Below are positions 43,651 through 57,965 of a DNA stretch of 64,000 bases, one piece after another. Source of the DNA: an uncultured SAR86 cluster bacterium (GTDB taxonomy: Bacteria; Pseudomonadota; Gammaproteobacteria; Magnimaribacterales; D2472); assembly GCA_964276235.1 (NCBI GenBank), contig CAXYEK010000002.1, positions 69,216 to 133,215 on the forward strand, in the 5' to 3' direction. How positions within the stretch are numbered: the first letter of the stretch is position 1; each line of letters opens with the position of its first letter. The position numbers and the translations under genes are program-made. Under the pieces are notes generated by a model that saw only the letters and a program-made list of their open reading frames with translations, did not search any database and was not told the origin of the DNA.

Positions 43651-44295
43651 ATGAGTAAAGACATGAAGGCAGATAAATCATCTCCTGCATATTTAAAACA
43701 ATCTAGCTCAGGAGGTCTTTTTATTGGCTTCTTGTATGTCTTGGTGTTTATGAGTATTTTTTCTTTAGGTATTTGGCAAAGCCTTGAGTCTAAATCAATC
43801 GAATCCGCTTCCAAGTTATTTAATGAAAGATTGGTAGTAATAGAAGAACAGATAAATATTGCTGATGAGACAAATAATGATTCTTTGAGTGATATATCTT
43901 CTTCTATTCAGTTTTTAGACAAAGAAGTTAGAAAATTATGGGATTTAAGTAATAAAAGGAACAAAACTAATATTGCAAAACTAACTAAAGCTACTCAAAA
44001 ACTTGAATTGTCTGTTGAAAGCATTAATAAGATGCTTAATGATTCATCTAAGTTGATAGAGGCAAATAAAAAGGATCTTCAAATTAATAGAGAAAGTATT
44101 AATAACCTTAGTCTTACAAATTCTGAAATAGAAAATATCCAAATAACCTTAAAGACAATAGAAACTCAATTAATTTTAATAGATGATTCGGTTCAGGCTT
44201 TAAACAATTATAAAAAGCAATTGAATCAATCTATTTCTGAGATCCAAACAGAGATATCTTTGATGAATCAGGAAACCATAGAACTCCAGGAGTGA
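43651..44295 (+). CDS. hypothetical membrane-anchored coiled-coil protein
   Basis: 214 aa. One TM helix near the N-terminus, followed by heptad-like low-complexity K/E/N/L/I sequence. Confidence 0.4.
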   Translation: MSKDMKADKSSPAYLKQSSSGGLFIGFLYVLVFMSIFSLGIWQSLESKSIESASKLFNERLVVIEEQINIADETNNDSLSDISSSIQFLDKEVRKLWDLSNKRNKTNIAKLTKATQKLELSVESINKMLNDSSKLIEANKKDLQINRESINNLSLTNSEIENIQITLKTIETQLILIDDSVQALNNYKKQLNQSISEIQTEISLMNQETIELQE

Positions 44296-44335
44296 CAGAA
44301 TTGACAATATATTTAAATAGTTGTCTCATATAATT

Positions 44336-44548
44336 ATGAATAAAACAGTTTTGCAGGTTTTTTTGCTTCTTGCATTCATTCCTTTGGCTATATTAGTAGG
44401 CTATGGGGTGCTTGTTATTGCTCCAATATTTTGCTGTTTTCTTGCAATTAACTCATATAAGTTTAAAAATTATAAAGAAATGTACATATGGATGGCCATT
44501 GGGGGAATATCCTTCTTGGTCGCACTTTATATGTTGGGAGTTCTATGA
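44336..44548 (+). CDS. hypothetical small membrane protein
   Basis: About 70 aa from ATG 44336 (MNKTVLQVF...) with two hydrophobic helices. ATGA overlap with the next ORF. Confidence 0.35.
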   Translation: MNKTVLQVFLLLAFIPLAILVGYGVLVIAPIFCCFLAINSYKFKNYKEMYIWMAIGGISFLVALYMLGVL

Positions 44549-44931
44549 TTATTAGAGGAATCATTCTTATAGCATCAATTTTATTGCTTTCAGTAGGCCT
44601 ATTAACCTCTCTTACTCCTGGCCTAAATAATTTTCTTCTACCAGTAGAGGTCACTAGTAAAGAGTCTGTAATAATGATTAGATCAATAGCTGGTTTATTT
44701 ATCGGTCTTGGGTATTTATCTGTTCGATTTGTATTTTCATCATCTCGAGTTCAAATCGGGAATGTTCTCCTTTCTATAACAAGTTGTGCAATATTTTCAA
44801 AAATTTGTAGTTTCATATTTGATGGGGTTACAAATTATTCAATAATTGTTTTCTCTTTTATGGTTCTTTATGCAATTGGTCTTTATTACCTCCAAAAGAA
44901 AAGAAAAAATGAAATAGACTATAATTTATAA
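44545..44931 (+). CDS. hypothetical polytopic membrane protein
   Basis: 128 aa from ATG 44545 (MIIRGIILIASILLL...) with 4 hydrophobic segments. The track start 44488 overlaps the previous ORF. Confidence 0.4.
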   Translation: MIIRGIILIASILLLSVGLLTSLTPGLNNFLLPVEVTSKESVIMIRSIAGLFIGLGYLSVRFVFSSSRVQIGNVLLSITSCAIFSKICSFIFDGVTNYSIIVFSFMVLYAIGLYYLQKKRKNEIDYNL

Positions 44932-44968
44932 TCTTTTTTTAATCTTTCCATTCAACAATAATAATCTA

Positions 44969-44974
44969 TATAAT
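44969..44974 (+). promoter_or_regulatory. -10 hexamer (TATAAT) of the tRNA-Leu promoter
   Basis: Perfect TATAAT 12 nt upstream of the mature tRNA 5' end. Confidence 0.4.
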
Positions 44975-44986
44975 GCATCAGTGTTT

Positions 44987-45071
44987 GGGGATGTGGTGGA
45001 ACTGGTAGACACGCCAGGTTTAGAACCTGGTGCCGCAAGGCGTGTGGGTTCGATTCCCTCCATCCCTACCA
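44987..45071 (+). tRNA. tRNA-Leu (anticodon UAG)
   Basis: GGGGATG/CATCCCT acceptor (G1-U72), anticodon stem CCAGG/CCTGG with loop TTTAGAA, long variable arm, GGTTCGATTCC T-arm, encoded CCA. 85 nt. Confidence 0.9.
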
Positions 45072-45085
45072 TTAAAGATATAAAA

Positions 45086-46048
45086 ATGAATAAACTTATC
45101 CTTTTATTAATATTCTTTAACGCAACTAGCTTGATATCGGATGAAGGCGATATTGTTGTTAGCCAAACAATAAATTCAGAAGACTACTTAATAGATAGAG
45201 AATCTTATTGTAGAAATAGAACCTCTGATGAACAACTAGACTGGTCTGAAGAGTTTCAAGAAAACTCACTATCAAAATCTACATGGAAATATGCTGTATC
45301 AAATGGATTTGAGGACAGAGGACAATACATTACTGGTTGGGGTAATGGAGAACTTCAATACTATACAAAGCCATCGCGAAAAAATAAAAAGACTCATACG
45401 TCCAAGAACTTATTTATCGAGAATGGATTATTAAAAATCCAACCCACATATAGTAAATACAAAGGCTTCAATTTTACTTCTGCCAGAATTGATACTAAAG
45501 CATTAAAAAACTTTAAATATCCCTCAAGAATTACTGTCTGTTTTAAGGTACCAACAGGGGTTGGTTTTTGGCCAGCTTTTTGGCTAATGCCTGATGAAGA
45601 TATTTTATGGCCGCAAGGAGGTGAAATAGATATCATGGAAAACAGAGGAAGAATTTCTAATATCTCGAGTTCAGCTCTTCATTTTGGAAAAAAATATGAT
45701 AATAAATCTACTTTAGTTGGTGAAGTTTTAATTCCAAGATCTGTAAAATTTCAAGAGAAATACCACTCAGTTTCTCTTTTATGGCAAGAAGATAAAATAG
45801 AGTTCTATTTAGATAATGAGAAAAATCCCTATTTCGCTATAGATAAAAACCATCCAGAATTTGCTGATTATCCTTATCCTTTTAACAGAGAATATTACAT
45901 GATTATAAATGTTGCTGTTGGAGGTAAGTATGATGATTATTGGGTTGATAAAGATGCTTTTTGTACTGATAGCAAATGTTCTAATAAGGAAAAACCTGAC
46001 AATCATAGGTTTCTAATAGATTGGATAGAGTATGAGCAACTGGACTAA
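45086..46048 (+). CDS. secreted glycoside hydrolase family 16 (laminarinase / beta-1,3(4)-glucanase-like)
   Basis: 320 aa from ATG 45086. Signal peptide MNKLILLLIFFNATSLIS and GH16 catalytic motif GGEIDIMEN (ExDxxE). The upstream part of the track ORF is the tRNA-Leu gene read as protein. Confidence 0.85.
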   Translation: MNKLILLLIFFNATSLISDEGDIVVSQTINSEDYLIDRESYCRNRTSDEQLDWSEEFQENSLSKSTWKYAVSNGFEDRGQYITGWGNGELQYYTKPSRKNKKTHTSKNLFIENGLLKIQPTYSKYKGFNFTSARIDTKALKNFKYPSRITVCFKVPTGVGFWPAFWLMPDEDILWPQGGEIDIMENRGRISNISSSALHFGKKYDNKSTLVGEVLIPRSVKFQEKYHSVSLLWQEDKIEFYLDNEKNPYFAIDKNHPEFADYPYPFNREYYMIINVAVGGKYDDYWVDKDAFCTDSKCSNKEKPDNHRFLIDWIEYEQLD

Positions 46049-46051
46049 AAG

Positions 46052-46079
46052 TTTACAATTGCAGTTATACATATATACT
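46052..46079 (+). promoter_or_regulatory. candidate sigma70 promoter for the arg leader (-35 TTTACA, 16-nt spacer, -10 TATACT)
   Basis: Hexamers at 46052-46057 and 46074-46079. The predicted start is about 46086, which would make the leader ORF almost leaderless. Tentative. Confidence 0.25.
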
Positions 46080-46088
46080 ATTTCGACA

Positions 46089-46136
46089 ATGAGTAAGTTA
46101 AATACACAATTAAGACGGGTTTCAGCAATTAGCTGA
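46089..46136 (+). CDS. candidate arg operon leader peptide MSKLNTQLRRVSAIS (tandem Arg codons AGA-CGG)
   Basis: This is the only ATG-initiated ORF in the 152-nt spacer. The Arg codons at 46113-46118 lie just upstream of alternative hairpin segments, and the stop codon lies inside segment 2. Confidence 0.4.
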   Translation: MSKLNTQLRRVSAIS

Positions 46137-46154
46137 GTCTTTCTATTGTGAATT

Positions 46155-46181
46155 AGACCCAGCTTTAGCTGGGTTTTTTTT
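46155..46181 (+). terminator. Rho-independent terminator / attenuator upstream of argF'
   Basis: (ag)acccagc-ttta-gctgggt(tt) followed by a run of T (46174-46181). It ends 20 nt before the argF' ATG. Confidence 0.7.
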
Positions 46182-46200
46182 ACTTTAAAAAAAGGTGATT

Positions 46201-47202
46201 ATGAAAAATTTTATTTCTACACAGGATTGGTCAAAAAAAGAACTTCAAGATATCTTGGATTATGCAAAAGATCTTAAAACTAATAAATTTCAAGACACGT
46301 TGAAAAATAAGTCAGTTGCACTTTTATTTTTTAATCCCTCGATGAGAACAAGAACTAGTTTTGAGCTTGGAATTCAAGAGTTGGGCGGATATGCAGTTGT
46401 TCTTCACCCAGGCAAGGATGCTTGGCCAATAGAATTCAAACCTAATTCAGTAATGGATGATGATTCTGAGGAGCATATTATTGAGGTTGCTAAGGTTCTT
46501 TCAGAATATTGTGATCTTATTGCTGTGAGAGCATTTCCTAAATTTATTGATTTAGAAGAAGACCTTTCTGACAAAGTTATAAATGGCTTTGCAAAATATG
46601 CTTCAGTTCCAGTTGTTAATATGGAAACAATTACTCATCCATGTCAGGAACTGGCACATATTTTAACAATGCAGGAAGAATTAGGAGACCTTTCAGGTAA
46701 AGATTACCTATTAACTTGGACTTACCATCCAAAACCTTTAAACACTGCTGTTGCAAACTCCTCTTTGATGATTGCAAGTAAATTTGGCATGAATGTAAAA
46801 CTTTTATGTCCAAGCCAAGATTATTTATTACATCAAAACTATCTAGATCAAGCTAAAGATAATTGTGACTCTAATGGTACTTCATTTGCAATAACTCATG
46901 ATATTGAAGAGGGCTACAAAGGAGCTGATATTGTTTATGCAAAGAGTTGGGGTTCTCTTAATTACTATGGTAATCCAAGTGAAGAAAAAATTATTAGAGA
47001 TAACTTTAAACACTTTATAGTTGATGAGAAAAAAATGGCATTAACTAATAATGCAAAATTTAGTCATTGCCTTCCATTAAGAAGAAATATAAAAGCAACA
47101 GATGCTGTCATGGATTCTGATTATTGTGTTGCTATTCAAGAAGCAGGCAATAGGCTGCATGTTCAAAAATCACTACTTACAAAATTATTAAAGGAAAATT
47201 AA
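46201..47202 (+). CDS. argF': N-acetylornithine carbamoyltransferase (ArgF' type; the N-succinyl alternative is not excluded)
   Basis: About 333 aa from ATG 46201. FFNPSMRTRTSFELG, GKDAWPIEF, NMETITHPCQELAH and HCLPLRRN match the Xanthomonas/Bacteroides AOTCase/SOTCase family rather than classical OTCase. Recall-based comparison. Confidence 0.8.
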   Translation: MKNFISTQDWSKKELQDILDYAKDLKTNKFQDTLKNKSVALLFFNPSMRTRTSFELGIQELGGYAVVLHPGKDAWPIEFKPNSVMDDDSEEHIIEVAKVLSEYCDLIAVRAFPKFIDLEEDLSDKVINGFAKYASVPVVNMETITHPCQELAHILTMQEELGDLSGKDYLLTWTYHPKPLNTAVANSSLMIASKFGMNVKLLCPSQDYLLHQNYLDQAKDNCDSNGTSFAITHDIEEGYKGADIVYAKSWGSLNYYGNPSEEKIIRDNFKHFIVDEKKMALTNNAKFSHCLPLRRNIKATDAVMDSDYCVAIQEAGNRLHVQKSLLTKLLKEN

Positions 47203-47203
47203 A

Positions 47204-48394
47204 ATGAAAAAAATCGTTCTCGCATTCTCTGGAGGCTTAGACACTAGTTTTTGCGTTCCCTACCTTATTGAAAAAAACTATGAGGTGCATACCATTTTTG
47301 TAAATACTGGAGGCACATCTAAAAAAGAAGAAGATAAGATTACAAAAAGAGCAAATGAGCTCGGGGCTAAAAAGCATATAAATGTAAATGTTGATACTTC
47401 TTTATGGAATCAAATAATAAAGCCTTTAATATGGTCCGGATCCTTATATCAAGACAAATATCCAGCCTTATGTTCTGATAGATATTTAATTGTTTCAGAG
47501 GCAATAAAACTTTGTAAAAAACTTAATACAAAATATATATCTCATGGTTGTACAGGTATGGGAAATGATCAAGTTAGATTTGATTTATCTATTCAAGCAT
47601 TTGGTAATTACAAAACCATAACCCCCATAAGAGAAATTCAAAATAAAGTTGATGATGTCAGGGGTTATGAGCAAAAGTATCTTGAAGAAAGAGGTTATAA
47701 AGTCTCTGGGCTGCACTCGACATACAGTATTAATGAAAATTTAATGGGTGCTACAGTATCCGGTTCTGAAATAGACGAATGGAAAGAGCCGTCAGAAGAA
47801 AGTTACATTCTATGCAGTACTCCAGACAAATACCCTTCTAAGACTAAAAAAGTAATTATTGATTTTGTTAAAGGAGAGGCTAAAAAGCTTAATGGTAAAT
47901 CTATTAAAGGTCCTGAACTTCTGAGAGTGTTAAATAAGATGGGTGGAAAATATGGCATAGGAAGAGAGATTTTTGCCAGCGACACTATTATTGGGATTAA
48001 AGGCAGGTTTTTATTTGAATCACCGGGTATAACTATATTGCAATCGGCTCATAGAGCACTTGAAGAATCAGTTTTTACTGATAAGCAGAATTTCTTTAAA
48101 CCTATTGTAGGTAAAAAGTGGGTAGAATTAGTTTACGGTGGATTTTATTTTGATCCTTTAACAAAAAATCTTGAGAACTTTCTTCAGGATATCCAACTTC
48201 CCGTAAATGGTAAGGTTACTATTCTTTTAAGTCCTGGCAAGGCAGAAGCTGTAGAAGTTGATGCCAAAAAAATATTAATTAGCAAAGAAGCTATCTATGC
48301 CCAGTCCGCATCGTGGGGAGTTGAAGAGTCAGCAGGATTTATTAAGCTTTTAGGACAAAGTACTGCAACATGGACAGATATTAATAAGAAGTAG
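47204..48394 (+). CDS. argG: argininosuccinate synthase
   Basis: 396 aa. AFSGGLDTS N-terminus and HGCTGMGNDQVRF. Confidence 0.95.
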   Translation: MKKIVLAFSGGLDTSFCVPYLIEKNYEVHTIFVNTGGTSKKEEDKITKRANELGAKKHINVNVDTSLWNQIIKPLIWSGSLYQDKYPALCSDRYLIVSEAIKLCKKLNTKYISHGCTGMGNDQVRFDLSIQAFGNYKTITPIREIQNKVDDVRGYEQKYLEERGYKVSGLHSTYSINENLMGATVSGSEIDEWKEPSEESYILCSTPDKYPSKTKKVIIDFVKGEAKKLNGKSIKGPELLRVLNKMGGKYGIGREIFASDTIIGIKGRFLFESPGITILQSAHRALEESVFTDKQNFFKPIVGKKWVELVYGGFYFDPLTKNLENFLQDIQLPVNGKVTILLSPGKAEAVEVDAKKILISKEAIYAQSASWGVEESAGFIKLLGQSTATWTDINKK

Positions 48395-48395
48395 T

Positions 48396-49706
48396 ATGAA
48401 TAACAGCATTCAAAAAGATACGATTATTAAGCTTCTCAGTGGAATGAGTAGTGAGAAGGAAATAAGAAAATATCTTGATAGATTTTCATCAGATGATTTT
48501 AGATTTGCTGTTATAAAAGTTGGCGGTGCTGTGATTCAAAATGATTTAGATAATTTAGTGACTTCTTTAGCTTTTTTAAATGAAGTTGGCTTAAGACCTA
48601 TCATTGTTCATGGAGGAGGGCCAAGGCTATCTAATGAACTTGAAGAGAGAAACATAAAATTTTCATTTGAAGAGGGACAAAGAGTTACTTCTAAGGAAGT
48701 ACTTGATGTCGCGATATCAATTTTTACAGAAGAAAATAATAAAATTACTTCTGCCCTGAAAAATAAGGGCATTAATGCAGTCCCATTAGTTAAAAATATT
48801 TTTGAATGCCATATAGCTAATAAGAAACTTGGATTTGTTGGTGAAGTTGTTAAGGCTCAATGTGAAGATATTAAAGACATCATATCTAAAGGAGGAATAC
48901 CGGTAATAGCTCCAATTGGGAAAACTGACAATGGACAAATTGTAAATGTTAATGGTGATAAGGCGACCCTAGCCTTAGCCAAAGAAATAATTCCTGATAA
49001 AGTTATTTTTTTAAGTGAAATCGGTGGTATTTTTGATGGCTCTGACAAACTTATTTCTACTATTAATATCAAAGATGATTATGAAAGATTAATGAGCCAA
49101 GAATGGCTTCATTCAGGCATGAAACTGAAGCTTCAGCAAATTAAAATTTTATTAGATTCAATGCCAAGTAATAGCTCTGTTTCCATTACTAAGCCCTTGA
49201 ATCTAAACAGAGAGTTATTTACAGATGCTGGCTTTGGTACATTGGTTAAAGCTGGACATCAAATAGATAAGTACAAAAAACTTGATAATAATAATCAAGA
49301 AAATATTACATCCATTCTTGAGTCCGCCTTTCAAGGTAAATTAATTAATAATTATTTTAATGGTGAAAAAAAAGACTTCTATATTAGTTCTTGCAATAGA
49401 TCTTCGATAATTATTTCTTATGATCAGGATATTGCTTATATGGACAAGTTTGCTGTTATAGGTTCTGCAAGGGGAGAAGGGCTAGGAGCTGCTATGTGGA
49501 ATAGAATGAAAGCTGACCATAAAAAAATTTTCTGGAGATCAAGATCAACAAATACAATCAATAGTTTTTATAAAGATGTTTGCGATGGCTTTCAGAAATA
49601 TGATGAATGGAATATTTTTTGGATTGGCATTAATGATTTAAAAGAACTTACTGGCTGTATTGAATACGCCGTAAGCCAACCTGAAACAATTACTTATGAA
49701 AAATAA
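48396..49706 (+). CDS. argB: bifunctional N-acetylglutamate kinase / N-acetylglutamate synthase (AAK domain + C-terminal GNAT)
   Basis: 436 aa. VIKVGG...HGGGP...NVNGD kinase domain followed by a ~150-aa acetyltransferase-like domain (RGEGLGAAMW). This architecture is known from Xanthomonadales NAGS/K. Confidence 0.8.
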   Translation: MNNSIQKDTIIKLLSGMSSEKEIRKYLDRFSSDDFRFAVIKVGGAVIQNDLDNLVTSLAFLNEVGLRPIIVHGGGPRLSNELEERNIKFSFEEGQRVTSKEVLDVAISIFTEENNKITSALKNKGINAVPLVKNIFECHIANKKLGFVGEVVKAQCEDIKDIISKGGIPVIAPIGKTDNGQIVNVNGDKATLALAKEIIPDKVIFLSEIGGIFDGSDKLISTINIKDDYERLMSQEWLHSGMKLKLQQIKILLDSMPSNSSVSITKPLNLNRELFTDAGFGTLVKAGHQIDKYKKLDNNNQENITSILESAFQGKLINNYFNGEKKDFYISSCNRSSIIISYDQDIAYMDKFAVIGSARGEGLGAAMWNRMKADHKKIFWRSRSTNTINSFYKDVCDGFQKYDEWNIFWIGINDLKELTGCIEYAVSQPETITYEK

Positions 49707-50637
49707 ATTTAATATAGCTATGGTTGGAGGTAGGGGTTATGTGGGCCAAGAAATTATTGGTATTTTGAACAATCATCCCCTATTTATTCTATCAAAAGTT
49801 TTTTCAAGTTCTGCAGCTGGAAAATCTGTAAGTGAATATACAAAAGCAATTAATTTAAATTACTCTTTGCTTGAAGATTCTAATGTAGATCTTGAGGGCA
49901 TAGACTTACTCATAATGGCATTACCAAATGATGATTCTTATAAATACATTAAATTAATTGATAAAAAATACCCCGATATAATTATCATAGATTTAAGTTC
50001 TGATCATAGATTTAACCCTGATTGGCAATATAGAGTGCCTGAAATTAGCAATCTAAAAGCATCAAATAGAATAAGTAATCCAGGCTGTTACGCATCTGCA
50101 ATGCAGTTTTCCCTGGAGCCTATTAAGGGATTAATTAAAGGAAAGGTTAGTTGCGTGGGTATATCAGGCTTTAGTGGAGCTGGAGCTTCTCCTAATGAGA
50201 AGAACGATCCAGAGAACCTTAAAGACAATATTATTCCTTATTCACTATCCGGACACACTCATGAGCAAGAAGTTTCTTCATATTGTTATAAAGATTTATC
50301 TTTTAGCCCTCATGTAGGTAACTTTTTTAGAGGGATTCTGATAACTTCTCATATTGAGTTAAAAGATAAATACAGTAATGACGAAATAAGTTCATTATTT
50401 AAAAATTATTATGAAAGCTCTAATCTTGTTAGTATTTCTGAACACATACCGATGATTAATAAGGTAATTAATTCACATAAAGTTTTTATTGGTGGCATTA
50501 CTGTTGACGAGTCAGGTAAAAATTTAACAATATGCTGCGTTTTAGATAATTTATTAAAAGGAGCTGCTACTCAAGTTATACAAAACTTAAATTCAGCATG
50601 CGGCATAGATGAATTAACAGGAATTAACTATGAATAA
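49696..50637 (+). CDS. argC: N-acetyl-gamma-glutamyl-phosphate reductase
   Basis: 313 aa. VGGRGYVGQE N-terminus and active-site NPGCYA. Confidence 0.9.
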   Translation: MKNKFNIAMVGGRGYVGQEIIGILNNHPLFILSKVFSSSAAGKSVSEYTKAINLNYSLLEDSNVDLEGIDLLIMALPNDDSYKYIKLIDKKYPDIIIIDLSSDHRFNPDWQYRVPEISNLKASNRISNPGCYASAMQFSLEPIKGLIKGKVSCVGISGFSGAGASPNEKNDPENLKDNIIPYSLSGHTHEQEVSSYCYKDLSFSPHVGNFFRGILITSHIELKDKYSNDEISSLFKNYYESSNLVSISEHIPMINKVINSHKVFIGGITVDESGKNLTICCVLDNLLKGAATQVIQNLNSACGIDELTGINYE

Positions 50638-51913
50638 AAAAATATGGAACACTAATGGTAAAAAACAATCCAATGAGGTAGCTGCATTTCTAGCAGGCGA
50701 GGATATTGAATTAGATAAATCTATTTTTATATATGATATTCAAGCCAGTATTGCTCACGTTAATAATCTCTTTTCCATTGGAATAATTAAAAAAGGAGAA
50801 TCAACTAAAATAATTAAGTCTTTAAAAGATCTAAAGAAAAAATTTCAGGAAGGCTCTTTTAAGTTAACTAATAAGTATGAAGACTGTCACTCAGCTATAG
50901 AGTTTTATCTAACAAAGGAGTTGGGAGAACTTGGTAAAAAAGTACACACAGGAAGAAGCAGGAATGATCAGGTAATAGTTGCTATGAGATTATTTGCAAA
51001 ACAAAACCTTATAAATTTTAAAATAGAAAATAAATTAGTAGCTAAAACCTTCTTAAAGCTTGCTAAAAAGCATGAAAATCATCAAATGCCAGGCTACACT
51101 CATCTCCAAAGAGCAATGCCATCTTCATGGGGACTTTGGTTCTCTTCCTATGCTGAATCCTTTATAGATAATATAGATCTTATAAATAGCACTATTGACT
51201 GGATAGATTCAAATCCGCTTGGGAGTGCTGCTGGTTATGGAGTGTCTCTTCCTTTAAATAGAAAGCAAGTTACTAAAGAGCTGGGATTTAAGAGAATTCA
51301 ATTGAACAGTCTTTATGTTCAAAATAGTAGAGGCAAATATGAGATGCAAATTTTAAATACACTGAAGCAGTCCATGTTAGATATAAGAAAATTTTCATGG
51401 GATATGAGCTTATTTCTATCTCAGGAGTTTGATTTGGTAGAGATCGATAGTATTTATCAAACAGGATCTTCGATAATGCCAAACAAACATAACCCTGATG
51501 TTATTGAAATTTTAAGAGCAAATTATTCAATTGTTGCTGGGCAGTCAGCTGAACTAGAAAATCTTTTATCACTACCTAGTGGTTATCACAGAGATCTCCA
51601 ATTAACAAAGAGAAGCTTAATAGCGAGCTTTGAAATCACTTCTAAGTCCCTAAAGATATTACCTAAACTTATTAACTCTATCAAAATAAATAAATCTAAA
51701 TCAGAAAGTTATATCGATGAAGAGATGAAAATGACAGATAAAGTTTATGGTTTAGTATCTAAAGGAGTGCCTTTTAGAGATGCCTATACTGAAATAAAAA
51801 ATACTGACGATCTCTCGGATTTTTCAGACTCAGATTATGCAAATTCGTCAGAAGGGTCGCCTGGTAATTTAAATCTCAAGTTTTTAGAAAATAGACTTAA
51901 AAAACAAAAATAG
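50630..51913 (+). CDS. argH: argininosuccinate lyase
   Basis: 427 aa. TGRSRNDQV, GYTHLQRA and the GSSIMPNKHNPD fumarate-lyase signature. Confidence 0.93.
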   Translation: MNKKIWNTNGKKQSNEVAAFLAGEDIELDKSIFIYDIQASIAHVNNLFSIGIIKKGESTKIIKSLKDLKKKFQEGSFKLTNKYEDCHSAIEFYLTKELGELGKKVHTGRSRNDQVIVAMRLFAKQNLINFKIENKLVAKTFLKLAKKHENHQMPGYTHLQRAMPSSWGLWFSSYAESFIDNIDLINSTIDWIDSNPLGSAAGYGVSLPLNRKQVTKELGFKRIQLNSLYVQNSRGKYEMQILNTLKQSMLDIRKFSWDMSLFLSQEFDLVEIDSIYQTGSSIMPNKHNPDVIEILRANYSIVAGQSAELENLLSLPSGYHRDLQLTKRSLIASFEITSKSLKILPKLINSIKINKSKSESYIDEEMKMTDKVYGLVSKGVPFRDAYTEIKNTDDLSDFSDSDYANSSEGSPGNLNLKFLENRLKKQK

Positions 51914-51920
51914 TATTTAT

Positions 51921-53213
51921 ATGGCCTTAGAAAGAAGTATGAAGCTTCCTGCAAGATTTCAGCTCATTATAATGTGTTTTTTTGCAGTTGTTATTTGCTA
52001 TATGGATAGAGTTAACATTTCTGTAACTATTCTTGAGATGGTTAAAGAATTTGGGCTCAATGAAAAACAAAAAGGGTGGGTTTTAAGTTCAGTCTACTTA
52101 GGCTATGTAATTTCAATGAGTATAGGTGGAATTCTAGCTGATAAATATGGTGGAAAAATTGTACTGGGATGGGGGTTATTGCTTTGGTCAATTTTTACAA
52201 TGTTAACGCCTTTTTTTGCTCATCACGGCTTCTTTTTTTTAATTTTAATAAGAGTTCTAATGGGCTTAGGTGAGGGTATTACCTTTCCTGCATGGCACTC
52301 AATGTATGCTAGATGGATCCCTTTTAAGGAAAGGACCAGAGCTATTGCAATAACCAATGCAGGGATTGCAACTGGAACTATAATTGCCCTTGTTGGAGCA
52401 GTAATTATTATGAATACTTATTCATGGGAATGGGTATTTTATTCTTTTGGAGCTATTGGGATAATCTGGTTTTTTGTCTGGAATAAATATGTTACATCTA
52501 ATCCAGAGGATCATTTAACAATATCGGAAGAAGAACTTCACTTAATAAAAAAAGAAGCACCAGCATCATCTAAGGCTGAAAAATTACCTTTTAAAAAGTT
52601 AGCTAGCAATCTTCCCTTTATAGCCATATGCGTAGCTTCATTTTGTAATGGCTGGGTACTTTTTTTCTTTATTTCATATCTTCCTAGCATCATTGAAGCA
52701 GATATCTCTATGGGAGGACTTGGAATTAGTGTTGACAGTAATATTTATATCTTATTAATTACAATACCTGCAATTGTTGGTGTTGTAACTTTAATACTTG
52801 GAGGGATTCTTGGAGATCACTTAATTAAAAAAGGCTATAAAGTTATTAATGTTAGAAAATCAGTTAATTCAATTGGATTTTTTGGATCTGCAATTCTTTT
52901 ACTAATCATGTCAATGCAAGATACTCCTGCTGGATTAATTATTTGCTTATGCTTAGTTAATACATGCTCTGGTATTTGTGCTGGTGGGTTCAATGTAAAT
53001 CAAGCAGATATAGGTCCAAAATATACAGGATCATTATTTGGTATTTCTGGTGCTATGGGTATTTTGGCCGCAATAATAAATCCTATTGTTGCTGGAATTA
53101 TCTTAGATGAAACTAATTCGTATCTACTTTTATATTATATAAACTGCATCATTCTTCTCTTTGGCGGATTTTTCTATCTATTTTTTGCTAGCGCTGATAA
53201 ACAATTTGAATAA
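51921..53213 (+). CDS. MFS transporter (anion:cation symporter-like)
   Basis: 430 aa, about 12 TM. D-R-x-N and G..ADK.GG-type MFS loop 2-3 motif. Confidence 0.8.
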   Translation: MALERSMKLPARFQLIIMCFFAVVICYMDRVNISVTILEMVKEFGLNEKQKGWVLSSVYLGYVISMSIGGILADKYGGKIVLGWGLLLWSIFTMLTPFFAHHGFFFLILIRVLMGLGEGITFPAWHSMYARWIPFKERTRAIAITNAGIATGTIIALVGAVIIMNTYSWEWVFYSFGAIGIIWFFVWNKYVTSNPEDHLTISEEELHLIKKEAPASSKAEKLPFKKLASNLPFIAICVASFCNGWVLFFFISYLPSIIEADISMGGLGISVDSNIYILLITIPAIVGVVTLILGGILGDHLIKKGYKVINVRKSVNSIGFFGSAILLLIMSMQDTPAGLIICLCLVNTCSGICAGGFNVNQADIGPKYTGSLFGISGAMGILAAIINPIVAGIILDETNSYLLLYYINCIILLFGGFFYLFFASADKQFE

Positions 53214-53280: not shown

Positions 53281-54054
53281 ATGGAAACAAAATTAGAAAT
53301 AGCAAAAAACTGGCTACCTAGATATACAGGCATGCCACTCGAAAAATTTGGTGATCATATACTGATTACAAATTTTAAAGATTACGTTACTAAGTTCGCT
53401 GATAGATTCTCTTCAGAAATATATGGAGAGGGTAGAGCTATGCAAGCAACAACAAATGATGACGGTTTAACAATTATTAATTATGGTATCGGGTCTCCTA
53501 ATGCTGCAACAATTATGGATCTGCTGGTGGCTGTTAAGCCAAAAGGAGTTTTATTTTTGGGTAAATGTGGTGGCTTAAAAGGCTCTTCAGAAATTGGTAA
53601 CTTTATCCTTCCTATAGGAGCAATTAGAGGTGATGGAACATCAAATGATTACTTTCCACCTGAAGTTCCAGCACTTCCGTCATTTAAACTTCATAAATTT
53701 GTTTCAGACATTATTATTGAGAAAGAGAGTGACTACAGAACAGGAGTTATTTTCACAACAAATAGAAGGGTATGGGAGCACGATAAGCCATTCTTAAAAA
53801 GACTAAAGAAAACAACTGCTATTGGTGTTGATATGGAAACTGCTACTGTTTTCTCTGTTGGGCACTACAATGAAATCGCAAGAGGTGCCTTGTTATTGGT
53901 TTCAGACGTTCCTTTAACTCCAGAGGGAGTTAAAACAGAAACCTCAGATAAAGAAGTAACCCAAAAATGGGTAGATCTTCATTTAGAAATTGGAATTAAG
54001 GCAATGACAGATATTGGTCAAAGTGGAGAAGAAATCAAGCATTTTAAATATTAA
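53281..54054 (+). CDS. nucleoside phosphorylase-superfamily protein (short AMP nucleosidase-like)
   Basis: 257 aa. PNP_UDP-like GIGSPNAA...GKCGG...GVDMETA pattern. By-eye call only. Confidence 0.5.
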   Translation: METKLEIAKNWLPRYTGMPLEKFGDHILITNFKDYVTKFADRFSSEIYGEGRAMQATTNDDGLTIINYGIGSPNAATIMDLLVAVKPKGVLFLGKCGGLKGSSEIGNFILPIGAIRGDGTSNDYFPPEVPALPSFKLHKFVSDIIIEKESDYRTGVIFTTNRRVWEHDKPFLKRLKKTTAIGVDMETATVFSVGHYNEIARGALLLVSDVPLTPEGVKTETSDKEVTQKWVDLHLEIGIKAMTDIGQSGEEIKHFKY

Positions 54055-54617: not shown

Positions 54618-55040
54618 ATGATTTGGCTAATTAGATTTTATTTATTTTTTATGGCAATAACTTATTTGCTAATTGGGGTATGGGCAATATTAGATCCTCT
54701 CCTTGGAGCATTAGATACTGGAATGCCTTCTTTTTTGGAAGCTGTTGGGCTTAATATTTCATCTGAAATTGGATACTCTGAAATAGCCGGCTTATATGGT
54801 GGTCTTAATCTTGGTATAGGTTTAATGTGTTTGATTGGAATTTTTAAATTTAATATTGGAGTTTTTGCCATAAAGTTTTTAACTTTTTTAACTGGCTCAA
54901 TTGCTGCAGGTAGAGTAATCTTTTCATTACTTCCCACAACTCCAGGGTTTTATAATTCTTTCTTTATTTTTGAAGTTTGTGCCTTGTTAATAGGCCTAAC
55001 GTTTTTATACTTTATAAAAAAATCAAATCAAGTTACTTAA
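54618..55040 (+). CDS. hypothetical 4-TM membrane protein (DUF4345-like)
   Basis: 140 aa with four hydrophobic helices. The family guess is weak. Confidence 0.4.
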   Translation: MIWLIRFYLFFMAITYLLIGVWAILDPLLGALDTGMPSFLEAVGLNISSEIGYSEIAGLYGGLNLGIGLMCLIGIFKFNIGVFAIKFLTFLTGSIAAGRVIFSLLPTTPGFYNSFFIFEVCALLIGLTFLYFIKKSNQVT

Positions 55041-55974
55041 ATTCAAAATATATCCTAAATAACCAGCTACAAATAAACATCCTATAAATTTTATAAAATT
55101 TATATTGAGCCGCGAATAAGAATAAGAAGCAGCAACAACGACAAACAAAATCGTAGCAATAATCATCACCAAGTAATCTCTTGAGAATATCGTTGAATGA
55201 AGGGTTGTATCTGAAAAGATACCAATGATGGGAACAACAAGTGCAATATTCATCACATTTGATCCAATAACATTACCAATAACCATGTCATTCTTATTCT
55301 TCATAATTGCAGAAATAGTAGCTGCCAATTCTGGAAGACTAGTGCCAATAGCTATAATTGTTAATCCAATTATGAGTTGAGGAACATTAAGCATAATTGC
55401 TATTTTTTCAGCATGTATAACAGCAAAATTAGATCCACCAATTAATGCTAAGAGACCAATAATCAAAAAGAATATTGTTAAGCTTGATCTTAAAATCAGA
55501 ACTTTCAACAACTTCTTTTTCATCATCAGCTCCACGACCAATATAGGTAACATAAATAAATGCTAGAAATAAACCTAAAAATATCCAACTTTCAGCGCTA
55601 GTTATTTTTAAATCAATAAGGCTAATTCCAAGGATTACTGCTCCTAAAATAAAAGGAACAAATTGAATAAAAGGTGTCTTTGCTGGTCTTGTAGATAGCC
55701 CAATACAAGAAACACCAAATATTAAGGCAATATTTGAAATATTAGATCCAACAACAGTTCCCATTGCTAGTTCTTCGGTTCCATTTAGCACAGAAGATAT
55801 ACCAACAAAAATTTCTGGTGCAGACGTTCCTAAAGCAACAATAGTTAAACCTATTGTCAATTCACTTAATCCTAATTTCTTTGCAACTAATGATGAGTTA
55901 TCTACAAATTTATCAGCACCCCATACGAGAACCGCTAAAGAAATTGCTAAACAAGTTAAGTGGTATAAAAACAT
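55023..55974 (-). pseudogene. CaCA-family Ca2+/Na+ antiporter (YrbG-like), reading frame broken by 1 nt
   Basis: ORF 55429-55974 carries alpha-1 (ALGTSAPEIF). ORF 55023-55553 carries alpha-2 (AIGTSLPELA). The two frames overlap and can be joined at gatgAAAAAgaag (T5 on the plus strand at 55516-55520). Confidence 0.8.
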
Positions 55975-56050: not shown

Positions 56051-56068
56051 ATTGAATATATATTCAAT
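56051..56068. promoter_or_regulatory. perfect 18-bp palindrome matching the ARG-box consensus (candidate operator)
   Basis: ATTGAATATATATTCAAT versus ArgR box wnTGAATwwwwATTCAnw. It lies 35 nt upstream of the SDR ATG (56103) and 77 nt from the antiporter start. Confidence 0.4.
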
Positions 56069-56102: not shown

Positions 56103-56900
56103 ATGGAAATCAATAATTTATTTAGCGTAAAGGGAAAAGTGGCAGTGGTAACTGGAGGTTCAAGGGGAATTGGCGAGATGATTACTGCTGGATTTCTTGC
56201 CAATGGAGCAAAAGTATATATATCAGCAAGAAAAGCACCAGCACTAATAGAAAAAGCGAAGGAACTTTCTGAACGTTATAACGCTGAATGTATAGCTATT
56301 CCGTGTGATTTGTCCACGATCGAAGGAATTGAGTCATTCACTAAAGTTATAGAAGAAAAAGAGGGCACTATTGATTTTTTAATTAATAATGCTGGGGCAG
56401 CTTGGGGAGAGCCTTTTGAGAATTTTTCAGAAGCAGGATGGGATAAGGTTATGGATCTAAATGTTAAAAGTATGTTTTTTATGACTCAAAAAATGACACC
56501 TCTATTAAAACCAAATGCATCAAATGAAGATCCATCTAGAGTTATCAATATTGGTTCTATAGATGGTTTAAATGTTCCAATGTTCCCAACATTTTCTTAC
56601 AGCACATCTAAAGCAGCTGTTCATCATTTAACTAGAGTTCTAAGCGCTCAACTTGTTTCACAAAATATTTTAGTAAATGCTATTGCCCCAGGACCTTATC
56701 CAAGTGCAATGTTAGGATCTGCTGTCCAAGGTGATTATTCTGAAATTGAAAAGAAGAATCCTAGAAAAAGAGTAGGAAGTCCAGAAGACATAGCTGGTTT
56801 GGTAATCTTCTTATGCTCAAGAGCTGGAGCATATACAGTTGGAGAAACGATTACCTCTGATGGAGGAATAGTTAAGACCTCAGGCCATAACCTGGGATAG
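56103..56900 (+). CDS. SDR family oxidoreductase (3-oxoacyl-ACP reductase / RhlG-like)
   Basis: 265 aa from ATG 56103. TGGSRGIG, NNAG and S...YSTSK motifs. The track TTG start 56052 falls inside the palindrome. Confidence 0.85.
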   Translation: MEINNLFSVKGKVAVVTGGSRGIGEMITAGFLANGAKVYISARKAPALIEKAKELSERYNAECIAIPCDLSTIEGIESFTKVIEEKEGTIDFLINNAGAAWGEPFENFSEAGWDKVMDLNVKSMFFMTQKMTPLLKPNASNEDPSRVINIGSIDGLNVPMFPTFSYSTSKAAVHHLTRVLSAQLVSQNILVNAIAPGPYPSAMLGSAVQGDYSEIEKKNPRKRVGSPEDIAGLVIFLCSRAGAYTVGETITSDGGIVKTSGHNLG

Positions 56901-56907
56901 TTGATAG

Positions 56908-57810
56908 TTATTTCTTTGCGTCAATAAAGGCTTTTATTATCAAGTCTTTCATCCAAAGATGGCCTCCGTCACCTTCGTCACTTTTATGCCATATCAAGAA
57001 GTATTCCATTGATGGGAGCTTAGTAGGAAACTCTATAAAAGGTAAATTATGAGACTTGGCGAAGCTTCTGGTACCCATTAAAACAAGATCAGTTGCTCTT
57101 ATGATTCCTGGAGCAATAAGGAAATGTTGGCATCTCAAAGCAACCTCTCTTCTGTAACCAATCTTATCTAGTTCTACATCTATTAGATGAAGGCCTCTTT
57201 TTCTGTTAGAAACATGTAAGTGTCTCTGCGCAAGAATATCATCTACTGATACTTCACTTATTTCAGTTAGAGGATGTCCTTCTCTATGTATAACAACAAA
57301 ATCATCTTCAAACACTTTATAAGAATTAATTTCTTCTGATTCAGGTATTACAGGATCAACAACAAAATCTAAATTATTTGTAGCAAGTGCGTGAACTTGA
57401 TCTGCTCTGCTGTATGCATAACTTCCCATAGAAATAAATGGAGCACTTTTATCTATCTCATTCATAATAAAAGGAAGAACTCTGATTTCAGAAATATCAC
57501 CCAAGGAAAGTTTAAAATTTCTGTTTGATAGTTTATGTTCAAAAGTATCTGGCTCATTAACACTTGCCTGCATAAGAGATAAAGCATTTTGAATATCATT
57601 AATTATATTTTCAGTTTTTTGAGTTGGAACCATTCCTGATCCAGTTCTTATAAATAATTCATCCCCAAATCTTTCTCTTAATCTTGAAAGAGCATTACTT
57701 ACCGCAGGCTGGGTAATACCAACTACTTCAGCTGCTTTGGTAAGACTACCTTCGGTATATATAGCATTAAGAATTACAAATAAATTTAAATCAAAAGAAC
57801 TAATTTTCAT
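56908..57810 (-). CDS. LysR-family transcriptional regulator
   Basis: About 300 aa from MKISSFDLNLFVILNAIYTEGSLTKAAEVVGITQPAVSNALSRLRE (winged HTH), plus a C-terminal substrate-binding domain. Confidence 0.9.
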   Translation of the reverse strand: MKISSFDLNLFVILNAIYTEGSLTKAAEVVGITQPAVSNALSRLRERFGDELFIRTGSGMVPTQKTENIINDIQNALSLMQASVNEPDTFEHKLSNRNFKLSLGDISEIRVLPFIMNEIDKSAPFISMGSYAYSRADQVHALATNNLDFVVDPVIPESEEINSYKVFEDDFVVIHREGHPLTEISEVSVDDILAQRHLHVSNRKRGLHLIDVELDKIGYRREVALRCQHFLIAPGIIRATDLVLMGTRSFAKSHNLPFIEFPTKLPSMEYFLIWHKSDEGDGGHLWMKDLIIKAFIDAKK

Positions 57811-57965
57811 ATACGCCTCATTAACATTAATAACGAACAATCGCTTTGCATTTTTAGATATAGATTTGTTATCAACATAAAGCTATTATATCTAAGAACA
57901 CTAATCGCACTATTCACCACACTTATAATGGTAACAAATATAGCAATATAAAGGGAGATTTTTAA

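Follow-up and report, generated by a model that had tools for sequence, protein, structure and literature searches.

A candidate leader-peptide attenuator with tandem arginine codons in front of the arginine biosynthesis operon of SAR86 bacteria

Introduction

Leader-peptide attenuation is a textbook mechanism for the biosynthesis of a handful of amino acids, and arginine biosynthesis in Proteobacteria is taught as being controlled by ArgR. The question addressed here is what controls the argF'-argG-argA/B-argC-argH operon of a SAR86 bacterium, which is preceded, in the 64,000-nucleotide (nt) stretch of DNA analysed (hereafter the window), by a spacer of 152 nt at positions 46049-46200. The spacer is best read as a ribosome-mediated (leader-peptide) transcription attenuator tying the operon to charged tRNA-Arg, a reading to which we give a probability of about 0.78 on comparative sequence grounds. 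The reading is based on the anatomy of the spacer, its conservation and covariation, a kept reading frame with arginine (Arg) codons, and the energetic feasibility of the switch, all of them computed. An attenuator had been proposed in a first-pass annotation, whose coordinates for the terminator, the short open reading frame (ORF), its Arg codons and stop, and four pairing segments are all correct in the sequence. Its proposal is now strongly supported by comparison across SAR86, Kangiellaceae and Lysobacterales, and by covariation in the 2:3 and 1:2 pairings.

Anatomy of the arg leader

The spacer starts directly 3' of the TAA stop (46046-46048) of a GH16-like gene and holds the following elements.

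46052-46079, + strand: sigma-70-type promoter of the arg leader, with -35 TTTACA at 46052-46057, a 16-nt spacer and -10 TATACT at 46074-46079
46089-46136, + strand: leader ORF of 15 codons plus stop, encoding MSKLNTQLRRVSAIS, and opening at the only ATG of the spacer's + strand
46105-46126, + strand: segment 1, the 5' half of the 1:2 hairpin (CACAAU..AGAC..UCAGC) in the minimum free energy (MFE) fold, containing the Arg codons
46113-46118, + strand: putative regulatory Arg codons AGA CGG (codons 9-10), conserved in relatives
46131-46150, + strand: segment 2, in which AGCUGAGUCU (46131-46140) pairs with segment 1 or segment 3
46155-46164, + strand: segment 3, AGACCCAGCU, the 5' arm of the terminator and also the antiterminator partner of segment 2
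46167-46181, + strand: segment 4, AGCUGGGUUU, with the T-run, pairing with segment 3 as an intrinsic terminator
46194-46203, + strand: Shine-Dalgarno sequence GGTGA (46194-46198) and ATG of argF' (46201), by sequence inspection

The promoter, which the first-pass annotation did not include, matches the consensus at 10 of 12 positions in a pattern scan. Its -10 hexamer ends 9 nt before the ATG at 46089, and the leader ORF has no Shine-Dalgarno sequence. Since the promoter would place the transcription start at the AUG, or no more than about 2 nt from it, and a Shine-Dalgarno sequence is absent, the ORF is read as lying on a leaderless, or nearly leaderless, mRNA. The first-pass annotation had already singled out this frame as the only ATG-initiated ORF of the spacer, and 46089 is indeed the sole + strand ATG there. 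Two in-frame alternatives, an ATG at 46032 (34 residues) and a TTG at 46059, were rejected as start codons, since neither is conserved and both lie either 5' of the conserved promoter or within it.

The terminator consists of ACCCAGC (46157-46163), a UUUA loop, GCUGGGU (46168-46174) and eight U's reaching 46181, and a pattern scanner widened its stem to 9 pairs (46155-46176). This motif occurs once in the 64 kb, against 0.02 occurrences expected. The argF' ATG, a start consistent with homologues beginning MKNFIST, follows the T-run after only 19 nt (46182-46200). As had been pointed out before, this leaves no space for a promoter after the hairpin, and the arg genes therefore depend on read-through of the terminator.

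An operator for ArgR was likewise absent, in agreement with the earlier reading of the spacer: no match to the 18-bp ARG box (TNTGAATWWWWATTCANW) with up to three mismatches lies within 46049-46200, and the one or two ARG boxes overlapping the promoter that mark an ArgR-operated promoter are not found in the spacer. The best ARG-box match of the window as a whole is a perfect palindrome, ATTGAATATATATTCAAT, at 56051-56068, with one mismatch to the consensus. It precedes an SDR oxidoreductase gene (56103-56900), just downstream of which lies a convergent gene for a LysR-family regulator (56908-57840, - strand), and it is probably the operator of a regulator other than ArgR.

How surprising is the leader ORF on its own? 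An ATG-initiated ORF of at least 8 codons with two adjacent Arg codons arose in 94 of 5000 dinucleotide shuffles of the spacer (1.9%). Taken alone, the ORF thus appears only mildly unusual, and its weight comes from conservation in relatives. The codons themselves differ sharply in usage: AGA accounts for 73% of Arg codons in the genes of the window, and CGG, with 0.6% of them and 4 of 17,952 codons overall, is the rarest sense codon there, which bears out a suspicion of the first-pass annotation that CGG might be rare.

Conservation of the leader within SAR86

Homologues of argF' with 70-99% identity are plentiful in marine metagenomes. Loci, referred to below by L numbers where they must be told apart, were drawn from a scan of one genome per species, to which 80 further loci from a metagenome scan were added; the SAR86 alignment (A2) holds 27 distinct leaders of the window type, to which the counts in this section refer. 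Upstream of the leader ORF, the most conserved columns are the two promoter blocks, with TTT invariant and ACA kept in at least 90% of leaders in the -35 block (GTTTACA), and TAT..T invariant in the -10 block. The distance from the -10 hexamer to the ATG is 7-9 nt in all SAR86 relatives, and that from the ATG to the terminator is 67-72 nt.

The reading frame is equally constrained. All leaders (27/27) keep frame 0 open over 14 codons, as opposed to 2/27 and 4/27 for the other two frames, and apart from the window, each ORF has exactly 14 codons. In the window, the usual TAG stop has been lost and the next codon, TGA (46134-46136), serves instead, giving 15. In the relatives, the TAG directly adjoins GCTGG. 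Codons 2-8 vary freely (MIRTKAQF, MNNYLTQE, MININTQP, MHNLSLQN and others). Arg-Arg at codons 9-10 is nevertheless present in 23 of the 27 leaders, encoded by AGA CGG in 21, AGG AGA in L009 and CGG AGA in L109, and L102 carries CGA-ATA-CGG (R-I-R), so that two Arg codons are found in 24/27. The preservation of the Arg residue despite such codon changes indicates that the constraint is at least partly on coding.

Pairing between the segments is conserved as well. In the 2:3 antiterminator, 88.5% of alignment cells are paired, versus 15-51% in slid controls, and two pairs have changed on both sides (e.g., UCU:AGA to UCA:UGA in L102). The extended 1:2 helix has 82.4% of cells paired, versus 32-44% in slid controls, with five two-sided pair changes (e.g., CACAAU:AUUGUG to CACAAC:GUUGUG in L008/L098). 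RNAalifold, blind to the window fold, recovered the inner 1:2 stem and the terminator.

Finally, the promoter-to-terminator module stays with argF' whatever its upstream neighbour, which may be a tRNA-Leu directly 5' of the module (L003-5, L007, L082-84, L089, L090, L094), a GH16 gene (window, L085, L102) or another gene (L002, L006, L008, L086-88). Because the module follows argF' across these differing neighbours, the hairpin is not merely the terminator of the upstream unit, a possibility that the first-pass annotation had named as fatal to its own proposal. In the window itself, tRNA-Leu(TAG) at 44987-45071 is followed by the GH16-like glycanase gene (45086-46048). The latter looks like an insertion beside tRNA-Leu in the lineage of the window, as many relatives have tRNA-Leu directly before the arg leader promoter.

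Alternative RNA folds

The leader RNA (46086-46185, 100 nt) folds at -30.2 kcal/mol, as compared with -16.7 +/- 3.0 kcal/mol for dinucleotide shuffles (z = -4.45; 0/200 shuffles as stable). Its ground state is the 1:2 hairpin together with the terminator. In this MFE fold, the 1:2 hairpin has an outer stem of CACAAU (46105-46110) with AUUGUG (46145-46150), a middle helix of AAGAC (46112-46116) with GUCUU (46137-46141) and an inner stem of UCAGC (46122-46126) with GCUGA (46132-46136). The first-pass annotation had placed segment 1 at 46122-46126 only, with the Arg codons upstream of it. That pairing stands, but the segment was drawn too short, as it extends over 46105-46126 and includes the Arg codons, in a manner comparable to the Trp codons of trpL; the longer 1:2 helix is thus an addition, as the promoter is. 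The leader stop codon (46134-46136) lies inside segment 2.

To approximate translation, a ribosome footprint of 28 nt was imposed as a folding constraint on 14 homologues, and nascent RNA was represented by a transcript that stops immediately 5' of segment 4 and has its Arg codons occupied by the ribosome. In this setting, the 2:3 antiterminator formed in 14/14 homologues, at -11 to -20 kcal/mol. In the window, it reaches -12.3 kcal/mol, and the lone terminator hairpin -13.3 kcal/mol; across homologues, the lone hairpin lies between -13 and -15 kcal/mol. A ribosome placed at the stop codon covers segment 2, which leads to the terminator in every homologue folded, and in ribosome-free nascent RNA, most homologues fold 1:2 and leave segment 3 free. 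The folds anticipated in the first-pass annotation were thereby recovered, with 1:2 plus terminator as ground state and 2:3 in nascent RNA with the ribosome on the Arg codons.

A wider family in Kangiellaceae and Lysobacterales

Outside SAR86, the closest relatives of argF' belong to Kangiellaceae and Lysobacterales/Xanthomonadales, and leaders with 3-6 Arg codons precede the gene in both. The Kangiellaceae leaders encode, for example, MNINFSNINLVIRRRRRSLNAGCDNVCV and MNFKTLTVVAASNSVQQRRRSRIMPAGNC, each then followed by AAACCCAGCC...GGCUGGGUUUUUUU. They contain RRRRR or RRRSR, and an Ala-Gly near the C-terminus is coded by GCUGGG, which is segment 2. When allied marine gammaproteobacteria are included (L016, L019, L021, L024, L025, L029, L041, L044, L064, L130, L132, L133, L138), the 3-6 Arg codons occur as RRRRR, RRRSR or RLRRLRRLR, again followed by GCUGGG and a matching terminator.

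In the Lysobacterales, which include Xanthomonas, Stenotrophomonas and Lysobacter (L026-L080 and L134-L160 with the Xanthomonadales; e.g., L071 2733-2834), all 53 loci examined encode ..SA(R)MA(A/S)GMTSRARRP..AG-stop, followed by a terminator. Among 45 distinct nucleotide versions of this leader peptide, the mean entropy by codon position is 0.45, 0.36 and 0.83, and the variation includes switches between TCN and AGY serine codons. This third-position variation and the serine switches show that the peptide is translated and under selection at the amino-acid level. The GMTSRARRP core is invariant in these leaders, a conservation far beyond the needs of codon counting, which suggests that the Lysobacterales leader peptide may be a nascent-peptide sensor.

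Covariation links the segments across the wider family. Among 86 distinct leaders, segment 3 (CC?GC) and segment 4 change together with the central base of segment 2 (GC?GG), and segments 2 and 3 are combined as follows.

U:A (GCUGG/CCAGC): 53 leaders
C:G (GCCGG/CCGGC): 21 leaders
U.G wobble: 9 leaders
C/A mismatch: 3 leaders

Hence, 83/86 leaders are compatible with the three-way covariation (Fisher p = 3e-10, not corrected for phylogeny). The covarying base is a synonymous site of the Ala codon and is chosen to suit the terminator arm. Ribosome-masked folding of seven Kangiellaceae and Lysobacterales leaders followed the same logic in most of them. The conservation expected by the first-pass annotation is therefore borne out, as SAR86, Kangiellaceae and Lysobacterales all retain the ORF, its Arg codons and the terminator. 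The window element is thus the minimal SAR86 form of an old family with longer Arg runs elsewhere.

Relation to the Xoo5 RNA

Part of this family has been met before under another name. The Rfam family RF02242, "Xoo5", matches the leaders of Xanthomonas vasicola (L071 2731-2854) and Pseudoxanthomonas (L033 2745-2866) at the gathering threshold, and both matches lie directly 5' of argF'. The small RNA (sRNA) Xoo5 was found by cDNA cloning in X. oryzae, with northern bands of ~130 and ~100 nt and rapid amplification of cDNA ends (RACE) of its 5' end (PMC3039613; Liang et al. 2011). It was described only as an sRNA of unknown function, and the main text contains neither "leader" nor "arginine" (PMC3039613); a later differential RNA sequencing study merely records the transcription start of an Xoo5 homologue (PMC3300014). 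Position 1 of the Xoo5 model falls 2 nt before the leader ATG (L071 2733), so that the Arg-rich ORF starts 2 nt after it. If model position 1 is assumed to be the RACE-mapped 5' end, Xoo5 gives a hint of experimental support, in a relative, for both a short terminated transcript and the leaderless arrangement.

The window and Xoo5 share the position before argF' (in Xanthomonas and Pseudoxanthomonas) and the AGACCCAGC...GCUGGGUUUUUU terminator with a GCUGGG partner upstream. The peptides differ, as that of Xanthomonas has ~33 residues with the invariant GMTSRARRP and that of SAR86 has 14-15 residues with only RR conserved. The Xoo5 model has no match in window positions 44000-48000 even at E <= 10, and none at the gathering threshold (50 bits) in SAR86 L002/L013, Kangiella L024 or Aliikangiella L064, so the proposed relationship between SAR86 and Xoo5 rests on position and shared motifs. 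In the same part of the window (44000-48000), no curated Rfam model for a riboswitch or T-box reaches its threshold. Matches below threshold to sRNA-like families (STnc180, at 33.4 bits versus a gathering threshold of 50, and others; E <= 10) were rejected as driven by the terminator.

Proposed mechanism and competing explanations

The spacer combines the features by which leader-peptide attenuators are recognised. A conserved short ORF follows the promoter and precedes the first structural gene, it carries clustered codons for the amino acid that the operon makes, an intrinsic terminator stands before the first gene with no intervening promoter, and the 1:2, 2:3 and terminator pairings are mutually exclusive and show conservation and covariation. 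From this arrangement, we infer the transcription start, translation of the ORF, ribosome stalling and dependence on arginine in SAR86. Transcription would start at the conserved promoter near the AUG at 46089, and the 15-codon ORF would be translated leaderless. When arginine is plentiful, the ribosome would pass AGA CGG, reach the stop codon in segment 2 and mask that segment, allowing the 3:4 terminator to form and transcription to end at 46181, 19 nt before argF'. If no ribosome is loaded, segments 1 and 2 would pair and the terminator would form likewise. When charged tRNA-Arg is scarce, the ribosome would instead stall on AGA CGG in segment 1, leaving segment 2 free to capture segment 3 once the latter is transcribed; no terminator would form, and the polymerase would enter the arg genes. 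The rare CGG codon probably heightens the sensitivity of the stall.

Several observations weigh against this attenuator. The window leader holds just two Arg codons, and single Arg residues are found in L011/L118 (CGG GGU, R-G) and L090 (AGU CGG, S-R). Most close relatives share AGACGGG at the nucleotide level, and since its AGAC is a partner of GUCU in the 1:2 helix too, the conservation of RR could partly reflect an RNA constraint. The terminator stem is invariant in the 27 SAR86 leaders and hence yields no covariation evidence there, and as the sequences are related, the shuffle and Fisher statistics overstate their independence. Folding is not uniform either: 2:3 is preferred even without a ribosome in four relatives (L001, L002, L006, L109), Kangiella L024 lacks 2:3 when the ribosome is on the Arg run, and L016 kept 2:3 with the ribosome at the stop. 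In the full-length RNA at equilibrium, the terminator is still the MFE structure in the window and most relatives when the ribosome is on the Arg codons, and only L002 and L006, both with a perfect 10-bp antiterminator, switch to 2:3. The geometry in which a stalled ribosome masks segment 1 only and one at the stop masks segment 2 was thus found for nascent transcripts, not at full-length equilibrium. A purely thermodynamic switch was rejected on this account; as the terminator beats the antiterminator at equilibrium in the window, the switch must be kinetic, as in trp, and the modelled mechanism would need kinetic trapping. Moreover, the ~130 and ~100 nt of Xoo5 fall short of the ~160 nt predicted from the start to the Xanthomonas T-run.

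Other explanations have to account for the same features. It could be speculated that the promoter-to-terminator unit is chiefly the gene of a trans-acting sRNA with its own terminator, and that the arg operon is expressed by constitutive leakage. Such an RNA would resemble Xoo5, which accumulates as a discrete species of ~100-130 nt (PMC3039613), released attenuator RNAs such as rnTrpL can work in trans (PMC6614838), and the terminator, with 9 pairs and eight U's, is strong. Yet in all lineages examined, the unit stays with argF' regardless of the gene that precedes it, a second promoter would not fit into the 19 nt ahead of argF' so that the arg genes need read-through, and an Arg-rich ORF with a conserved antiterminator has no role in a plain sRNA. 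A function in trans would add to attenuation and not replace it. As the main explanation, the sRNA gene is improbable. We find it more improbable still that the leader is a structured cis-regulatory RNA, i.e., a riboswitch or protein target in which a ligand or protein decides on the terminator and the ORF is incidental. The strong leader structure (z = -4.45), the nucleotide conservation of AGACGGG and UAUUGUGAAUUAGACCC in close relatives and the lack of a Shine-Dalgarno sequence for the ORF would all suit such an RNA. However, no Rfam family reaches threshold, the frame is kept at fixed length in 27/27 leaders while its 5' half varies freely, and Arg residues are retained with different codons. 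The ATG is also fixed at 7-9 nt from the -10 hexamer, as leaderless initiation predicts, the Lysobacterales peptide varies synonymously at third positions and between TCN and AGY, and Arg runs are the one feature common to the otherwise unalignable leaders of three orders.

Chance, by which an ordinary tRNA-Leu/GH16 terminator would happen to follow a fortuitous short ORF, hardly deserves credence. Short RR-containing ATG-ORFs do appear in the 1.9% of shuffled spacers given above, and the hairpin would also halt transcripts arriving from the upstream unit, here those of GH16. But GH16 and the hairpin are separated by a conserved promoter, and the ORF, Arg codons, segment 2 and terminator are co-conserved, with covariation, over SAR86, Kangiellaceae and Lysobacterales; these comparative data effectively refute a fortuitous arrangement.

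The arg operon and its neighbours

The genes downstream of the candidate attenuator form one closely packed operon (46201-51913, + strand), in which neighbours abut or overlap and all five genes belong to arginine biosynthesis.

46201-47202, + strand: argF', N-acetylornithine carbamoyltransferase (NCBIfam PRK04523, 1.5e-161)
47204-48394, + strand: argG (NCBIfam PRK04527, 2.7e-175)
48396-49706, + strand: bifunctional argA/B-type acetylglutamate kinase (NCBIfam PRK04531, 3.3e-155)
49696-50637, + strand: argC (NCBIfam TIGR01850, 1.5e-75)
50630-51913, + strand: argH (NCBIfam TIGR00838, 5.8e-95)

An MFS transporter gene (51921-53213) begins 7 nt after argH and may share the transcript of the arg operon, which would place it under the same attenuator. 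The gene after it (53281-54054) encodes an AMP nucleosidase. Further downstream, a calcium/sodium antiporter gene on the - strand (55023-55974) is split into overlapping ORFs, of which 55429-55974 corresponds to the N-terminal half and 55023-55553 to the C-terminal half of the family. The split is a frameshift, due to either a pseudogene or an assembly error.

Other SAR86 clades have no terminator-type leader in the 200 nt 5' of argF' (L010, L012-L015, L017, L018, L103, L104, L106, L108, L110, L112, L113, L116, L117, L119-L122, L124, L125, L127, L128). These loci carry an ORF of ~42 codons starting 9-10 nt after a conserved TTGGNT-17-CATACT promoter and ending in (K/R)(R/L)RS[ILV]-stop, e.g., ..KRRLRSI-stop, ..SRRRRSI-stop or ..PKLRSL-stop. 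The stop lies 35-41 nt before argF' and is followed by a short CC..AAUGG(C/U)G hairpin, usually without a T-run. At some loci, the C-terminal motif is ..SSIPTQRLRSL-stop and forms the end of an apparent upstream panD gene. MAFFT and RNAalifold gave no consensus fold for the other-clade leaders ending ...R-x-R-S-[ILV]-stop. They may use a translational mechanism; alternatively, the ORF may be what is left of the 3' end of panD.

Implications

If the attenuator reading is true, arginine joins the amino acids known for attenuation, and streamlined marine genomes like that of SAR86 control a costly pathway by RNA and not by a dedicated repressor at this promoter. It would also provide a function for Xoo5 (RF02242), an orphan Rfam family of Xanthomonas plant pathogens. 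Among the lineages concerned are major plant pathogens as well as a bacterial group that ranks with the most abundant of the ocean. Kangiella and Xanthomonas can be cultured, so the mechanism is directly testable there, and in SAR86 metatranscriptomes, coverage of the leader relative to that of the operon could mark arginine limitation in situ.

A more sweeping picture can be drawn, which we regard as speculative and, in its entirety, rather unlikely. Here, leader-peptide attenuation, not ArgR, would be the main arginine control in SAR86, Kangiellaceae and Lysobacterales/Xanthomonadales, with Xoo5 as the terminated leader and the Lysobacterales GMTSRARRP as an arrest peptide, comparable to the fungal arginine attenuator peptide, TnaC and SpeFL. 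The SAR86 form would be purely codon-based and tuned by the rarest codon, and the released leader might act in trans.

Comparison with known systems

The closest parallel to the window leader is trpL of Escherichia coli, which encodes a leader peptide of 14 residues with Trp-Trp at codons 10-11 and in which 3:4 is more stable than 2:3. Each has an ORF of 14-15 codons in which a tandem pair of regulatory codons, located in segment 1, precedes the stop codon, located at segment 2, by about four codons. In both, 1:2, 2:3 and 3:4 are mutually exclusive, the terminator lies just before the first biosynthetic gene, and the terminator is more stable than the antiterminator, making the choice kinetic. 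Unlike trpL, the window leader would sense arginine and regulate argF'-argG-argA/B-argC-argH, its ORF lacks a Shine-Dalgarno sequence and would begin at, or adjacent to, the transcript's 5' end, one of its regulatory codons is the rarest in the window genes, and there is no sequence similarity between the two.

Leaderless leader ORFs have precedents in trpL/rnTrpL of Sinorhizobium meliloti (PMC6614838) and in the poly-cysteine short ORFs of mycobacteria (bioRxiv 10.1101/834739). As proposed here, these ORFs begin at the 5' end of the transcript, their tandem codons sense the cognate amino acid, and the released attenuator RNA can persist as an sRNA. They differ in the amino acids sensed (Trp and Cys) and belong to other phyla or classes. 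No report of a leaderless leader-ORF attenuator in SAR86, Kangiellaceae or Lysobacterales, or for arg genes, was found in the freely searchable literature.

Short upstream ORFs whose translation reports arginine status are known in other settings. In the fungal arginine attenuator peptide of arg-2/CPA1, part of a eukaryotic scanning system, the nascent chain senses free arginine, and the Salmonella speF leader is not known to use an intrinsic terminator/antiterminator switch. The only upstream ORFs with Arg codons found in the freely searchable literature were orf34 of this speF leader (PMC6386406) and rbfL of Staphylococcus aureus, which precedes rbf, contains rare Arg codons, like CGG in the window leader, and occludes a ribosome-binding site (PMC13009471). 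As far as known, rbfL also differs from the window in having no intrinsic terminator/antiterminator switch, and neither speF nor rbf is an arginine biosynthesis gene. The same literature yielded no Arg leader-peptide attenuator for arginine biosynthesis genes and nothing on SAR86, subscription-only papers such as a 2004 FEMS attenuator survey being outside the search.

ArgR regulons, with repression of arg genes at ARG boxes, are described in Enterobacteria and other Gammaproteobacteria (PMC5343134) and serve the same end, keeping the arginine pathway under feedback control. Their repressor, ArgR, binds DNA at operators, whereas the signal proposed for the window is charged tRNA-Arg and not free arginine. 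In mechanism, the window attenuator is of the trp/his class, and its novelty lies in arginine as the amino acid sensed, in the operon and lineages concerned and in the new interpretation that it gives to Xoo5.

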